This document shows positions 1 through 12,711 of a stretch of 13,971 bases of DNA, piece by piece. Each line of letters opens with the position of its first letter. Within the stretch, counting starts at the first letter, position 1. The stretch lies in the UHGV virus genome UHGV-1842250; one strand, written 5' to 3'. The notes beneath the pieces are model-generated. The model was not told the DNA's origin. It worked only from the letters and a program-made list of their open reading frames with translations, and searched no databases. The DNA comes from a virus. The position numbers and the translations under genes were made by a program.

Positions 1-46
1 TTAACAGCTAACTCATAGCAAATCATTCCTATTCAGATACCAACTC

Positions 47-79
47 AACCCTCTGTTTTTGCAGAGGGTTTTTGTTTTT
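47..79 (+). terminator. Rho-independent terminator ending a transcript that enters from the left
   Basis: 9-bp perfect stem AACCCTCTG (47-55) / CAGAGGGTT (62-70), 6-nt loop, then T-tract TTTGTTTTT (71-79). The reverse strand has no U-tract, so it is unidirectional. Confidence 0.6.
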
Positions 80-135
80 ATGTATTCATTTCTATTCACT
101 CTACACCATATTTTTCGGCGGTACAGGTGACGGTA

Positions 136-150
136 TTACCTTAAAGGTAT
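136..150. promoter_or_regulatory. Operator-like site upstream of int (TTACCTTAAAGGTAT), nested in a larger inverted repeat
   Basis: Matches the window-wide TTACC-N5-GGTAA motif at 9 of 10 fixed positions. It contains the 13-bp perfect palindrome TACCTTAAAGGTA and is flanked by TGACGGTAT (129-137) / ATACCGTCA (158-166). It overlaps a candidate -10, TATACT (148-153), about 40 bp before the int start. Confidence 0.4.
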
Positions 151-192
151 ACTCTCATACCGTCATGAAAATGGTTTCTATACGGGTGAATT

Positions 193-1449
193 GTGCTTAC
201 CGATACAAAATTAAAAAACCTCAAGCCGCAGGACAAACTGTACAAGGTCTCCGATCGTGACGGGCTGTATGTAGCTGTGCTTACGTCAGGCACGGTCTCG
301 TTTCGCTATGACTACCGTATCAACGGTCGCCGCGAAACACTGGTAATCGGGCAGTATGGGCGTGACGGTATCAGCCTGGCAGAAGCGCGAGAAGAACTGA
401 TTGCTGCAAAGAAGCTGCTTAAAGCAGGCCAGTCGCCGGCTGCGGCTAAACGTGACGGTATCAAAAAGATTCGTGGTGCCGAGACGTTTGCGGTACATAC
501 CGACAGTTATATGAAACACGTCATCCTGGCTGACAGTACCCGCGCAATGAAGCAGGCGGTGATCGACCGTGACATACTTCCGGTTCTTGGCAACAAAATG
601 ATGGCTGAAATTACCACATCGATGGTTCGTGATTTGTGTGACCGGATTGTCGAACGCGGTGGTCGGGCAACAGCAGTACAGGCCAGGGAGATCATCAGCA
701 GCGTATACCGTCACGCCAATGACCGTGGTCATGGTTTGTTTAATCCTGCGGCTGACATTAAACCTTCGTCTATCGCCATATTTAAACCACGAGAGCGAAC
801 ACTGACACCAGAAGAAATTGGCCTGTTCTTCCGCACGCTGGATGCCATTTGTGCTATGGGCACTATGAAAATGGCTTTAAAGCTGGTGCTTATCACTATG
901 GTTCGTAAAGGCGAATTCACCAATGCAACGTGGGATGAAATAGATTTTAAAAAATGGACATGGACAATTCCTTCAGACCGCATGAAGGGAAGCCGGGCGC
1001 ACGTTATTTACCTGCCTAAACAGGCACAGGATATATTGGTTGGGTTGCAGATGTGCGCTGGTGGAAGTGAATATCTGGTTCCTGGTCGTTACAATTTCCG
1101 GAAGCCATTATCTAATGCCGCGCTGAACTCTCTGATCGACAGAACGGTGAAAATAATAAATGAAGATGGTGAGCATATTCAGGACTTCACCGTACACGAT
1201 ATGCGCCGTACAGCAAGTACGTTGTTGCATGAGGCTGGTTATCCTTCAGACTGGATTGAAAAGGCTCTGGCACATGAGCAGAAAGGTGTGCGCGCCGTAT
1301 ATAACAAAGCGGAATACGCCAGACAGCGCGCCTACATGTTGCAGCAGTGGGCCGATATGATTGATTCCTGGATTAACGGGGAGCATACGGATCTGATTCC
1401 GTTCTCCCCGTCGAAGTTTGAGAGGTGGATGGAAGACAGTAATAAATAA
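193..1449 (+). CDS. int: Tyrosine site-specific integrase, P4/IntS-like family
   Basis: 418-aa ORF with GTG start. The N-terminus (MLTDTKLKNLKP...DGLYVAV...G...RY) is typical of P4-type integrases, and the C-terminus has catalytic-region motifs (HDMRRTASTLLHEAGY ... YNKAEYARQR). Confidence 0.93.
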   Translation: MLTDTKLKNLKPQDKLYKVSDRDGLYVAVLTSGTVSFRYDYRINGRRETLVIGQYGRDGISLAEAREELIAAKKLLKAGQSPAAAKRDGIKKIRGAETFAVHTDSYMKHVILADSTRAMKQAVIDRDILPVLGNKMMAEITTSMVRDLCDRIVERGGRATAVQAREIISSVYRHANDRGHGLFNPAADIKPSSIAIFKPRERTLTPEEIGLFFRTLDAICAMGTMKMALKLVLITMVRKGEFTNATWDEIDFKKWTWTIPSDRMKGSRAHVIYLPKQAQDILVGLQMCAGGSEYLVPGRYNFRKPLSNAALNSLIDRTVKIINEDGEHIQDFTVHDMRRTASTLLHEAGYPSDWIEKALAHEQKGVRAVYNKAEYARQRAYMLQQWADMIDSWINGEHTDLIPFSPSKFERWMEDSNK

Positions 1450-3159: not shown

Positions 3160-3408
3160 TCATGCAGCGTTGCTCACAGGACGATATACACGTTGCTGAA
3201 CAGGAGGCTTTTTACCCTGGAACTCTGCCGGGCTTGCAGCCTGACGTTCATCAAGCCAACGCTCAACTTCGTCACGGTTCCATGCGCAGCGTTTGTCAGT
3301 GATATACCAGCGTTTAGGAAATTCCCCTGCGCGCTCCATACGGTCGATAGTGCTCCATGACAGTGGCACCACCGCCAGGAGTTCCTTCTTACCTAATGCA
3401 CCTTTCAT
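3160..3408 (-). CDS. AlpA/Vis-type excisionase or transcriptional regulator (small HTH protein)
   Basis: 82 aa with an AlpA-like motif (LLAVVPLSWSTIDRMERAGEFPKRWYITDKRCAWNRDEVERWL). SD GAGAGG sits 6 nt before the ATG at 3408. This type commonly partners P4-family integrases. Confidence 0.82.
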   Translation of the reverse strand: MKGALGKKELLAVVPLSWSTIDRMERAGEFPKRWYITDKRCAWNRDEVERWLDERQAASPAEFQGKKPPVQQRVYRPVSNAA

Positions 3409-5682: not shown

Positions 5683-5697
5683 TTACCGTTGAGGTAA
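5683..5697. promoter_or_regulatory. Operator site, perfect palindrome TTACCGTTGAGGTAA, promoter-proximal in the leftward (PL-like) promoter
   Basis: Exact TTACC-N5-GGTAA. It abuts the candidate -10 of the leftward promoter, and an extra TTACC half-site sits at 5670-5674. Confidence 0.6.
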
Positions 5698-5725
5698 TAA
5701 TTATGCGTATATGGTTTGGTGTCAA
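5697..5725 (-). promoter_or_regulatory. Candidate leftward early promoter (PL analogue)
   Basis: On the minus strand: perfect -35 TTGACA (5725..5720), 17-bp spacer, -10 AATTAT (5702..5697). Flanked by operator sites at 5745-5759 and 5683-5697, the same layout as the promoter at 8778-8806. Confidence 0.5.
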
Positions 5726-5744
5726 TAGATATGAGTTAAAAAAA

Positions 5745-5759
5745 TTACCCGTTAGGTAA
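5745..5759. promoter_or_regulatory. Operator site, perfect palindrome TTACCCGTTAGGTAA, promoter-distal in the leftward promoter
   Basis: Exact TTACC-N5-GGTAA, centred 62 bp from the site at 5683-5697. Confidence 0.6.
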
Positions 5760-5816: not shown

Positions 5817-6401
5817 TTATTGTTTGTTTTTTTCGTTCTGGTTGATGACAAATTCAATGTAACTTTCGATCTTTGCCTTCTCTGTTTCAGGTAACAATGC
5901 GTAGCGCGAGCGGTCATAGTTGATAGTTGCAGGGTCATGCGGATGAATCAGTAGTTCATATCCGTGACGCCCGAATGCAGATGCAACATTCTCCAGGGTG
6001 GAAATGGAAACGCTGACCTCATTGTTTAACAGGCGGCTTATTGTCACCTGGGCGACGCCGGATGCGCGGTGAAGTTTTCCCTGAGTTGAAAGGTCGCGGC
6101 TTTCACTCATCCAGCGTTCCAGGTTGTGAGCTGCCAGCTGACCAATGTCGCTTGGGCCGACAGGCTGAAAACCTTCCTGAGAAAGCGAGCGATCGATATC
6201 AAGCCAGTTACGGGGTTTATTGGCGGCAGCTTCAATTTTTCGCGCAACCTGGTCGCCGATAACTTTCTTGCCAAGAGCCCAGCGGTTTACCAGATTTGCC
6301 TGAGTTCCAAGTTTTTCTGCCATCCGCGTCTGAACACCATTGAATTCACGGTCGATCAAGTCGTTGAGATTTTGCCTGCGGACGTCCTGGATACTTTTCA
6401 T
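5817..6401 (-). CDS. Phage repressor (cI analogue) with two HTH domains and no recognisable LexA/S24 autocleavage domain
   Basis: 194 aa, divergent from the Cro-like gene across an operator-rich spacer. HTH-like segments QTRMAEKLGTQANLVNRW and ASGVAQVTISRLLNNEVSVSISTLENVA. No S24 peptidase serine-lysine dyad or Ala-Gly cleavage context seen. No SD before the ATG, so the transcript may be leaderless. Confidence 0.8.
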   Translation of the reverse strand: MKSIQDVRRQNLNDLIDREFNGVQTRMAEKLGTQANLVNRWALGKKVIGDQVARKIEAAANKPRNWLDIDRSLSQEGFQPVGPSDIGQLAAHNLERWMSESRDLSTQGKLHRASGVAQVTISRLLNNEVSVSISTLENVASAFGRHGYELLIHPHDPATINYDRSRYALLPETEKAKIESYIEFVINQNEKNKQ

Positions 6402-6456: not shown

Positions 6457-6519
6457 TTACCCAACAGGTAAATGCACCTCATAGGTAACTATCCTTGATT
6501 TTTGTTACCTTATGGGTGA
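6457..6519. promoter_or_regulatory. Immunity-region operator cluster of three sites between the repressor and cro-like genes, with divergent promoters
   Basis: Sites at 6457-6471 (TTACCCAACAGGTAA, perfect), 6474-6488 (GCACCTCATAGGTAA) and 6505-6519 (TTACCTTATGGGTGA). Candidate rightward promoter: -35 TTGATT (6494-6499) or TTGTTA (6502-6507), -10 TATTAT (6525-6530), overlapping the third site. Confidence 0.6.
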
Positions 6520-6555
6520 ATATTTATTATCTGAAATAAATATCAGGCAATAGCT

Positions 6556-6841: not shown

Positions 6842-6856
6842 GTACCTCAAAGGTAA
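6842..6856. promoter_or_regulatory. Operator-like site GTACCTCAAAGGTAA between the terminator and the replication genes
   Basis: 9 of 10 match to TTACC-N5-GGTAA, with the ACCTCA core shared with the sites at 5683, 6474 and 8806. An AT-rich stretch with weak promoter-like hexamers follows (6870-6920). Confidence 0.4.
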
Positions 6857-6934: not shown

Positions 6935-7147
6935 TTGAAGATAGTAACCAGAATGGAGGCCGCAAAAGCCGGGTTAAATCGCTATTTCACAGGAAAGCGG
7001 TGCCGTCACGGCCATCTCTCTGAAAGGTATGTTCTGAACGGAACATGTGTTGAATGTGCAATGAATAGCGCCAACCGCCATCGTAATGAATTTGCTTGTG
7101 CACTAAAGAGTGCAAGAGGGGAAACCTATGGCAAGCAGCTGGATTAA
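6935..7147 (+). CDS. Small Zn-ribbon protein (C-x3-H...C-x2-C), function unknown
   Basis: 70 aa from a TTG start at 6935, preceded by AAGGGG; the internal ATG at 6953 has no SD. Motif RCRHGHLSERYVLNGTCVEC. Its end overlaps the start of the O-like gene by 20 nt. Confidence 0.55.
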   Translation: MKIVTRMEAAKAGLNRYFTGKRCRHGHLSERYVLNGTCVECAMNSANRHRNEFACALKSARGETYGKQLD

Positions 7148-8730: not shown

Positions 8731-8743
8731 TACGTCTTGATAA

Positions 8744-12004: not shown

Positions 12005-12045
12005 GAGTAGATTATGCATGATGAATTTGACGGGTTTTGAATACT

Positions 12046-12071
12046 GCCGCCAACTATGGCGGCTTTATTTT
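12046..12071 (+). terminator. Strong rho-independent terminator between the early/accessory genes and the terminase genes
   Basis: 7-bp GC-rich stem GCCGCCA (12046-12052) / TGGCGGC (12057-12063), 4-nt loop ACTA, then TTTATTTT. Confidence 0.7.
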
Positions 12072-12082
12072 GCATGGTACTA

Positions 12083-12115
12083 TTACCACAACGGTAACTA
12101 TTACCACGGTGGTTA
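12083..12115. promoter_or_regulatory. Tandem operator-like sites immediately upstream of the terminase small-subunit gene
   Basis: Perfect TTACCACAACGGTAA (12083-12097) followed 18 bp later by TTACCACGGTGGTTA (12101-12115). Half-sites chain as GGTA-cta-TTACC-N5-GGTAA-cta-TTACC-N5-GGTTA, echoing GGTAACTATCC at 6485-6495. No convincing sigma70 -35/-10 pair nearby. Confidence 0.5.
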
Positions 12116-12711
12116 TGATGCCTGCTGAACCTAAAACCTATAAACGCAAATCAACGCAATTTAAGCCACTAACAGCAATGCAGGAGGCTTATTGCCAGTC
12201 ATACATCAAAACGCCTGAAAACCAGACTCAGGCAGCGATTAACGCAGGATTCTCCCCAAATACAGCGGCAGTTAAAGCCAGTGTCATGATGCGCGATGAA
12301 CGCATTCAAAAACGGATTGCCGAGTTGATGGAGGAGCGCAACAAACGAATGCGCGTCAGTGCTGATTACGTTCTCATGCGCCTGGTGGAGATCGACCAGA
12401 TGGACGTGATCGACATCCTCAACGACGATGGGAGCCTTAAACCAATCCGTGAGTGGCCGAAAATCTGGCGCACTACGCTTAGTGGCTTTGATCTGTCATC
12501 GACCATCATGAACATGAACGAGGATTCGATAGAGACAATCCTCAAAAAAATTAAATGGCCTGACAAGGTGAAGAACCTTGAGCTGATTGGTAAGCATGTT
12601 GATGTCAACGCGTTCAAAGAACGTCTGGATGTTAATGTGAATGTGACAATTGCTGATCGCATAGCAGCAGCCAGGAAGCGACTCAAAGAACGTCAGGATG
12701 GTAATCAGTGA
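12115..12711 (+). CDS. terS: Terminase small subunit
   Basis: Resembles phage small terminase subunits (AYCQSYIKTPENQTQAAINAGFSP...AAVKASVMMRDERIQKRIAEL) and sits directly upstream of, and overlapping, the large-subunit gene. Start taken as ATG 12115 (or 12118); the track's TTG at 12037 would run through the terminator and operator sites. Confidence 0.82.
   Translation: MMPAEPKTYKRKSTQFKPLTAMQEAYCQSYIKTPENQTQAAINAGFSPNTAAVKASVMMRDERIQKRIAELMEERNKRMRVSADYVLMRLVEIDQMDVIDILNDDGSLKPIREWPKIWRTTLSGFDLSSTIMNMNEDSIETILKKIKWPDKVKNLELIGKHVDVNAFKERLDVNVNVTIADRIAAARKRLKERQDGNQ

Follow-up and report, generated by a model that had tools for sequence, protein, structure and literature searches.

A candidate repressor operator between putative integrase arm-type sites at the predicted int promoter of a Uetakevirus prophage

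Introduction

In many phages the integrase gene (int) is turned round and reads away from the attachment site. How transcription of such a gene might be governed is the question raised by the left end of UHGV virus genome UHGV-1842250 (the whole stretch of DNA analysed here, 13,971 nucleotides, hereafter the window). In it, int is read on the plus strand and converges on the following genes, which occupy the minus strand from position 1452. A first-pass annotation, made from the sequence alone, had rightly described this convergence and had taken it to mean that int needs its own promoter. It had placed an operator-like site inside a nested inverted repeat shortly upstream of the int start codon, had proposed repression in the lysogen, and had offered the repeat arms as alternative binding sites for recombination proteins near the attachment site. 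Is the nested repeat one structure or several, and which proteins might it serve?

The window is the left end of a Uetakevirus (epsilon15/phiV10-type) Escherichia coli prophage inserted at the 3′ end of guaA. Both repeats upstream of int are real, and they represent two overlapping site classes, not a single structure. From the sequences themselves, their enrichment and conservation, their co-inheritance with the repressor (Rep) or the integrase (Int), and a promoter-like geometry, we consider it probable that positions 119–165 form an int control region within the P′ arm of the attachment site, in which Rep would repress an int promoter set between integrase arm-type sites. The features on which this proposal draws are collected in Table 1.

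Table 1. Coordinates of the features discussed, in window positions
Feature	Position	Strand	Remark
att core (attgagtgggaatgaTT), last two bases	1–2		Rest of the core within the 3′ end of guaA, outside the window
Intrinsic terminator	47–70	+	10-bp stem, then T run
Candidate arm-type site P′1, CGGTAC	119–124	+	C119–A123 invariant; 12 bp upstream of next copy
Candidate arm-type site P′2, GTGACGGTAT, outer left arm	127–136	+	Includes −35-like GTGACG (127–132)
Candidate Rep operator, TTACCTTAAAGGTAT, core TACC-N5-GGTA at 137–149	136–150		Exact match to OL/OR motif
Predicted int −10, TATACT	148–153	+	Inferred start about 159–161
Candidate arm-type site P′3, ATACCGTCA, inverted right arm	157–165	−	Over the inferred transcription start
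Candidate intragenic arm-type copy, GTGACGGTATCA	362–373	+	int +171
Candidate intragenic arm-type copy, TGACGGTAT	453–461	+	int +261
Candidate intragenic inverted copy, ATACCGACA	497–505	−	int +305
AlpA-family gene, likely excisionase	3160–3408	−	Pfam PF05930; leftward early operon, separate from int
OL, two operators (5684–5696, 5746–5758)	5684–5758		62 bp apart, flank predicted PL; between rep end and leftward operon
rep, repressor gene, product proposed to bind 136–150	5817–6401	−	SPC32H Rep homologue
OR, three operators (6458–6470, 6475–6487, 6506–6518)	6458–6518		Between rep and cro-like gene
Operator pair	8745, 8807		After replication genes

Results

The inner site matches the operator motif of the phage repressor

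The 15-nt operator-like site of the first-pass annotation, TTACCTTAAAGGTAT, is present at 136–150, and its core forms a perfect palindrome, TACCTT-A-AAGGTA (137–149). This core has the form TACC-N5-GGTA, the motif that marks OL and OR. Exact copies are also found at 5684, 5746, 6458, 6843, 8745 and 8807, and most operator copies in the window carry the longer form TTACC-N5-GGTAA. When one mismatch or fewer was allowed, the core occurred 13 times in the window against 2.5 expected, a count that none of 200 shuffles reached; an exact core arose in 0.2% of 2000 shuffles of bases 3–192. The motif clusters in the same way in epsilon15 and phiV10, and in the GenBank record of epsilon15 the counterparts at OL, and those past the replication gene, are annotated as repressor sites. 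The cognate protein is also at hand, as the window Rep is a full-length homologue of SPC32H Rep, a protein of solved structure (PDB 5D50, E = 4e-42), and is identical to the repressor of phiV10 and ZX5.

Conservation was followed in an alignment of 12 relatives with 75–99% nucleotide identity and in a wider set of 49 loci that hold 15 distinct sequences upstream of int. Among the 12 relatives, the block 128–155 is invariant except for the central N5 of the site and one base of the −10 hexamer: TTACC and GGTATA are fixed (TA-T after GGTA, C152 excepted), while four of the five spacer positions vary (TTAAA, CTAAA, TGAAA, CGAAA, ATTAC). The string TTACC-N5-GGTATA is retained in all 15 distinct sequences of the wider set, and each of the 12 relatives, all of which encode Rep, carries exactly one exact core upstream of int, in addition to those at OL, OR and other sites. 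Fixed half-sites around a variable spacer are the pattern of a site for a dimeric protein and not that of a stem. Together, these results support the view that the inner site is one more copy of the Rep operator motif, a candidate operator placed in front of int.

The candidate operator overlaps a predicted int promoter

TATACT lies at 148–153, 40 nt 5′ of the GTG start codon at 193, as had been noted before, and it is the only conserved −10-like hexamer upstream of int. In the 12 relatives it is invariant except for C152, which is A in epsilon15 and turns the hexamer into TATAAT. In a simple sigma-70 position weight matrix (PWM) scan with relaxed spacers, GTGACG(127)-15-TATACT(148) was the top plus-strand candidate in 1–195 and stood at the 99.96th percentile of all window positions. 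These findings, along with the conserved terminator at 47–70, are consistent with the earlier suggestion that int would have its own promoter in this region.

The operator core at 137–149 fills the spacer of this predicted promoter and overlaps its −10. The top promoters of the window (PR, PL, 8737/8759 and 8778/8801) all carry an operator in or beside the spacer or the −10. In PR (TTGTTA at 6502, 17-nt spacer, TATTAT at 6525) the 6506 operator falls within the spacer; in PL (TTGACA-17-AATTAT) the 5684 operator comes right after the −10; and in the promoter at 8737 (TTGATA-16-TAAAAT) the spacer is filled by the 8745 operator. The placement of the operator at the predicted int promoter appears to follow the same design as at PR and at this third promoter, which fits the reading of 136–150 as an operator-like site.

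The same PWM scan also returned a minus-strand, promoter-like sequence, TTGTCC-17-TAATTT (208–236), in the first int codons, reading toward the int promoter, with a score (10.6) among the best of the window. Its −10 is unconserved in relatives (TAGTTT or CAGTTT), and the sequence is therefore probably fortuitous.

The outer arms are members of a motif family that flanks the attachment core

The outer repeat consists of TGACGGTAT at 128–136 and its exact complement ATACCGTCA at 157–165, matching at 9 of 9 positions and standing 20 nt apart; the inverted repeat described in the first-pass annotation is thus exact, and only its span, given as 129–166, was off by one. Among 2000 shuffled versions of 3–192, 1.7% had an inverted repeat that was perfect over 9 nt or more. 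TGACGGTAT has five exact copies in the window, all inside 128–713, and nine matches with one mismatch or fewer against 2.4 expected (0 of 200 shuffles reached nine). The shorter GACGGTA is found seven times without mismatch in the window, where 0.85 occurrences would be expected, and five of the seven fall within 129–712.

The left arm (128–136) is invariant in all 12 relatives. The right arm varies (ATACCGACA, ATAGCGACA, GTACCGTCA), and no compensating change accompanies it in the left arm. On the far side of the attachment core, the P arm of seven free phages contains an invariant GTGACGGTATATAAAACGGTA (GTGACGGTAT-ATAAA-ACGGTA) amid otherwise variable sequence. The two CGGTA units in it are 12 bp apart, the same spacing that separates the units at 119 and 131 in the P′ arm. 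The epsilon15 record marks the counterparts of 127–136, 362–371 and 452–461, as well as the P-arm copy, as integrase protein_bind features, a database annotation. Int itself carries an arm-DNA-binding domain (PF13356) at residues 2–87 (E = 4e-20). We infer that the outer arms are putative integrase arm-type sites, members of a GACGGTA family that flanks the core on either side and recurs within int.

Three copies inside int are invariant at synonymous positions in the 12 relatives. In the 12-sequence alignment, 362–373 is the longest invariant run of the whole int gene, and GACGGTAT (454–461) and ATACCGAC (497–504) are among the six longest, the latter including synonymous positions; overall, only 16% of third codon positions in int are invariant. 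A further motif copy, at 705–713, is not conserved. The intragenic copies may be part of an extended attP, serve an autoregulatory loop or act as a roadblock, and their conservation poses a puzzle about how far the attachment site, or an autoregulatory complex, reaches. Pairing in the mRNA between the upstream and intragenic copies (154–165 with 363–374, 11 of 12 positions complementary) was considered and rejected, as the right arm varies and the invariant intragenic copies do not compensate for it.

An Edwardsiella satellite separates the two site classes

The inner and outer sites come apart in an element of Edwardsiella ictaluri ATCC 33202 (L132, NZ_AFJI01000100.1, 1450–8000), which is located at the same guaA core. 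This element is a P4-like satellite with a Toprim primase, Ogr/Delta, an AlpA protein and a Dam-type methylase, and its Int is 61% identical to the window Int. GACGGTA occurs upstream of its int at 1581+, 1593+, 1633− and 1657+, and inside int at +171, +261 and +305 (minus), that is, at 1860–1866, 1950–1956 and 1994–2000, with the offsets seen in the window. Seven copies in all thus stand at matching positions, and the +305 copy, TACCGTCA, is kept although the encoded residues differ (TV versus TD). The 32 nt of unrelated sequence between the second direct and the inverted copy contain neither TACC-N5-GGTA nor an operator-like palindrome. The 8 kb compared, which ends about where rep would lie, held no Rep homologue and no enrichment of TACC-N5-GGTA. 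As the Edwardsiella element keeps the arms and does without the inner site, the arms appear to travel with the recombination proteins and the inner site with Rep-type immunity. The alternative offered in the first-pass annotation, that the arms are sites for recombination proteins, agrees with this, since the same motif recurs in the P arm and follows Int and the AlpA-like protein into the Edwardsiella element.

The element was found in a genome scan anchored on the arm sites (15 specified bases), which returned mostly chance matches across phyla and also gave a locus of Erwinia dacicola. Viral-contig scans with the window Int and the Edwardsiella Int yielded mainly near-identical E. coli prophages, most of them ending at the int start, and only two Edwardsiella-type contigs, both without upstream DNA. 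A phage (Uetakevirus) and a satellite (Edwardsiella) share an attachment site and an arm motif.

The control region lies in the P′ arm of a prophage at guaA

Positions 1–1500 of the window were matched in 564 of 5426 complete E. coli genomes, always directly 3′ of the guaA stop codon and followed by a tyrosine recombinase gene. Positions 1–200 are present in 569 of the 5426 genomes, all of them prophage carriers, and in none of the others. The window DNA is 98–99% identical to the free phages phiV10, vB_EcoP_ZX5, PAS61 and TL-2011b, and 75–82% identical to Salmonella epsilon15, SPN1S and SPC32H and to Enterobacter and Klebsiella phages, all of which belong to the genus Uetakevirus or are close relatives. 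The attachment core, attgagtgggaatgatt (listed as attgagtgggaatgaTT in Table 1), is reported to have been established experimentally for phiV10, epsilon15 and ZX5 (PMC9782041). It ends at window base 2, and guaA ends directly before window base 1. Given that the core ends there and that 1–200 occurs only in prophage-carrying genomes, 3–192 is phage DNA, the P′ arm of attP, which places the nested repeat near the attachment site as had been supposed. A transfer RNA search gave no match, and the element is not linked to a tRNA gene.

The int open reading frame (ORF; 193–1449, plus strand, GTG start) encodes 418 amino acids with Arm-DNA-bind_3, Phage_int_M and Phage_integrase domains (Pfam PF13356, PF22022 and PF00589), and the protein is 98–99% identical to the integrases of phiV10, ZX5 and PAS61. 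The terminator at 47–70 is nearly invariant in the 12 relatives and is annotated as a terminator in the epsilon15 and phiV10 records. It would end transcription coming from guaA in the prophage or from the late operon in the free phage, and so insulate int. The phage thereby brings its own terminator, which after integration lies 3′ of guaA; as this terminator is nearly invariant across genera, the prophage replaces the 3′ flank of the host gene. The terminator is flanked by the direct repeats TCATTCCTATTCA (23–35) and TCATTTCTATTCA (86–98), kept as TCAWNNCTAYTCA in 12 of 12 relatives, which are candidate sites for the AlpA-like excisionase or for a host bending protein.

Further operators in the window and in relatives

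OR is made up of one exact core and two cores with one mismatch. The paired operators (5684/5746 and 8745/8807) stand 62 bp apart from centre to centre, a spacing also found in L004–L014, that is, in every relative, across four genera; the OL spacing is 63 bp in Klebsiella-type relatives, and OR sites are 17 bp apart. This fixed spacing suggests that a single Rep tetramer bridges two operators. A single operator, GTACCTCAAAGGTAA (6843–6855), which differs by one base from the core upstream of int, lies past the cro-like terminator and before a 70-amino-acid ORF (6935–7147).

Another exact operator-like site with full flanks, TTACCACAACGGTAA (12084–12096), and a one-mismatch neighbour (12102–12114) lie just within the predicted small terminase ORF (12037–12711), at its 5′ end. 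They may point to control by Rep close to where the late genes begin, or the start codon of this ORF may have been mis-called. Extra exact cores occur in the late regions of relatives (L008, 1962–1974 and 2345–2357; L009, 2189–2201; L010, 2205–2217; L011, 4380–4392 and 4792–4804). They adjoin an antirepressor gene, annotated as such in Tyrion, or, elsewhere, small minus-strand genes at the corresponding place, and the Rep regulon may therefore include Rep's own antagonist.

Discussion

A model for int control by the immunity repressor

The arrangement described here allows us to propose how int could be tied to immunity. We suggest that int would be transcribed from a weak sigma-70 promoter, with a −35-like GTGACG, a 15-nt spacer, TATACT as the −10 and a predicted start near 160, and that TTACC-N5-GGTAT would fill the spacer and reach two bases into the −10. 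In the lysogen, Rep bound at 136–150 would block RNA polymerase and keep int off. Inactivation of Rep by the antirepressor would then release int and the AlpA-like excisionase gene together. The latter belongs to the predicted Rep-controlled leftward operon, which is convergent to int, and the excision proteins would come from two units. After infection, int would be expressed until Rep builds up. The N-terminal domain of the integrase, in turn, would bind the direct sites at 119–124 and 127–136 and the inverted site at 157–165, and thereby build the recombination complex. As these arm sites overlap the −35 and the predicted start, the integrase probably also damps its own promoter, as in KplE1 and P4.

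Several points weigh against this proposal, which puts a Rep-repressed promoter between integrase arm-type sites. The site upstream of int is single, whereas OL and the post-replication promoter carry pairs spaced by 62 bp in every relative, and Rep is described as a tetramer (PMC9638917). No partner operator was found about 62 bp to either side of 137, where there is only a TTACC half-site at 197–201 that is unconserved in epsilon15-type sequences. The right flank of the site is T (GGTAT), whereas it is A (GGTAA) in the other operators. The promoter itself has a poor −35 (GTGACG, 4 of 6 bases) and a suboptimal 15-nt spacer, and a standard promoter scan of 1–1600 gave no site. Co-variation of repressor and operator offers little leverage: the TACC and GGTA half-sites are the same in all relatives, even where Rep is only 42% identical, and Rep and Int co-occur in exactly the same 36 phage records, among which no phage pairs Rep with a different int, so that no change of specificity could be followed. 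Integrase relatives in the phage collection drop from more than 80% to about 33% identity. The dissociation in Edwardsiella comes from one element, a single negative case, and this element shares an AlpA-like protein (48% identity) as well as Int, so the arms could be sites for the AlpA-like protein rather than for Int. The search returned no experiment on this region; the SPC32H papers (PNAS 2016, J Virol 2013) and the epsilon15 paper (Virology 2007) lay outside it and may hold earlier tests, and a Rep site at int may perhaps have been noted before in these primary reports, though the epsilon15 GenBank record does not mark 136–150 as one.

Alternative readings

The whole nested repeat might act in RNA, as a stem-loop that is an RNase III site or a 5′ structure controlling stability of, or read-through into, int from guaA or the late operon. 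The epsilon15 record indeed labels the homologous 39 nt, exactly the span of the nested repeat as first described, 'RNaseIII, mRNA processing', and the predicted hairpin is stable (−16.1 kcal/mol, z = −3.98), none of 200 shuffles folding as stably. Its variation, however, is not that of a stem. Compensatory changes occur in 0 of 14 pairs, and most variants break pairs: among 10 distinct sequences the outer stem has A-A in three and G-G in one, and the fifth inner pair is broken in six. The right arm has drifted but the left has not changed, and in Edwardsiella the arms stand 32 nt apart around unrelated sequence. With TATACT as the −10, int transcription would begin within the hairpin, leaving the 5′ half of the structure out of the mRNA, and the terminator at 47–70 should stop most read-through into it. 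An Rfam search with the element gave no match. We regard an RNA function as unlikely, and the RNase III label in the epsilon15 database record finds no comparative support.

Proteins other than Rep might use the inner palindrome as an architectural or recombination site, with the AlpA-like excisionase, IHF, Fis or the integrase as possible ligands. This would suit its position in the P′ arm, between arm-type sites and about 135 bp from the core, and in KplE1 sites for the recombination directionality factor (RDF) and Int occupy the homologous attL region (PMC2951348). The inner site nevertheless copies exactly a motif whose other locations are early promoters at a distance of 5–9 kb (OL, OR and further ones), and recombination proteins are not known to act there. 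It is absent from the Edwardsiella element, which uses the same guaA core and encodes related Int and AlpA proteins, and its inverted pair of half-sites 5 bp apart differs from the GACGGTA direct repeats 12 bp apart. We rate this alternative as rather improbable. We give a similarly small weight to the idea that Rep does bind 136–150 and there mainly hinders the integrase at attL (arms 127–136 and 157–165), blocking excision, or else activates int. T136 is common to the operator and the left arm, the right arm begins 7 nt after the last base of the operator, and a weak promoter might need activation; yet an operator that overlaps the −10 and the spacer, as at PR and the 8737 promoter, has the geometry of a repressor site, and activation from a site that overlaps the −10 would be unusual. 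Last, the repeats might be chance features of a conserved non-coding stretch without specific function. A 6 + 6 palindrome alone is not rare in 190 bp, and the conservation may reflect recent common ancestry of the E. coli copies. The shuffles cited above, however, seldom give the exact operator core or the 9-nt inverted repeat, the half-sites, but not the bases between them, are retained in relatives with as little as 75% nucleotide identity, and the arm motif is kept where Int is only 61% identical. A chance origin therefore seems very improbable.

An extension of the favoured model, in which Rep represses the int promoter, gives Rep a dual role. Wedged between the arm sites of attL, Rep would both silence the int promoter and block assembly of the excision complex, and the intragenic copies (+171, +261, +305) would join an extended Int–DNA complex that brings promoter and gene body together in a loop and serves autoregulation or recombination. 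The Mu repressor offers a parallel, as it blocks both early transcription and the transposition enhancer. We put this extension forward as speculative, with doubts that clearly outweigh its appeal.

Implications

If 136–150 is a working Rep operator, the epsilon15/phiV10 phages put a private operator on the int promoter inside a recombination arm, and one antirepressor event would free int and the excisionase from two transcription units. The phage group is used as a source of reporter and biocontrol phages, and the prophage is common (569 of 5426 complete E. coli genomes).

Comparison with known systems

In lambda, int belongs to the PL operon and CI acts at PL, far upstream of int; sib, downstream of int, mediates retroregulation by RNase III. 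As in lambda, the immunity repressor would here ultimately control int, and a hairpin near int is annotated as an RNase III site (in epsilon15). In contrast to lambda, the candidate operator lies at the promoter of int itself, and the hairpin has no support from covariation.

The candidate operator resembles the Rep operators of the SPC32H/epsilon15 type (PDB 5D50) in its TACC-N5-GGTA core, its TTACC flank and its location in or next to a spacer or −10. It differs from them in being a single site and not part of a 62-bp pair or a 17/31-bp triplet, in having T and not A as its right flank, and in its location, within the attachment site and 5.5 kb away from the immunity region.

The surrounding region recalls KplE1 (CPS-53), in which the intS promoter overlaps attL and is repressed by IntS and the RDF TorI; a similar logic has been reported for P4 int, with Int and Vis (PMC2951348). 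The predicted layout of the window shares with these systems a dedicated int promoter in the arm that reads away from the core, arm repeats that overlap promoter elements, and int and RDF genes in separate units. In the window, 127–136 covers the −35-like hexamer and 157–165 the inferred start of the predicted promoter, which is a KplE1-type geometry. Unlike in KplE1, an operator for the master repressor between the arm sites would tie int to the immunity switch; no master-repressor control of intS is described in that work (PMC2951348).

The Stx phage Phi24B likewise has an int that lies in the opposite orientation to that of lambda, is served by its own promoter and is transcribed independently of xis. 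Experiments there showed that int does not respond to CI and that the lysogen expresses it (PMC3064807). The inverted int of the window, in contrast, appears to carry a repressor operator, and the opposite behaviour is predicted. The ZX5 paper (PMC9782041) gives no data on control of int by the repressor or by Int. In the cases studied, a reversed int is uncoupled from immunity, as expression in the Phi24B lysogen allows repeated lysogeny and KplE1 uses autoregulation by Int and RDF. Set beside these, the window would combine two known designs, a Rep operator set and a KplE1/P4-like int region, and the new element, a master-repressor operator added at the predicted int promoter, would be a modest variant of them.

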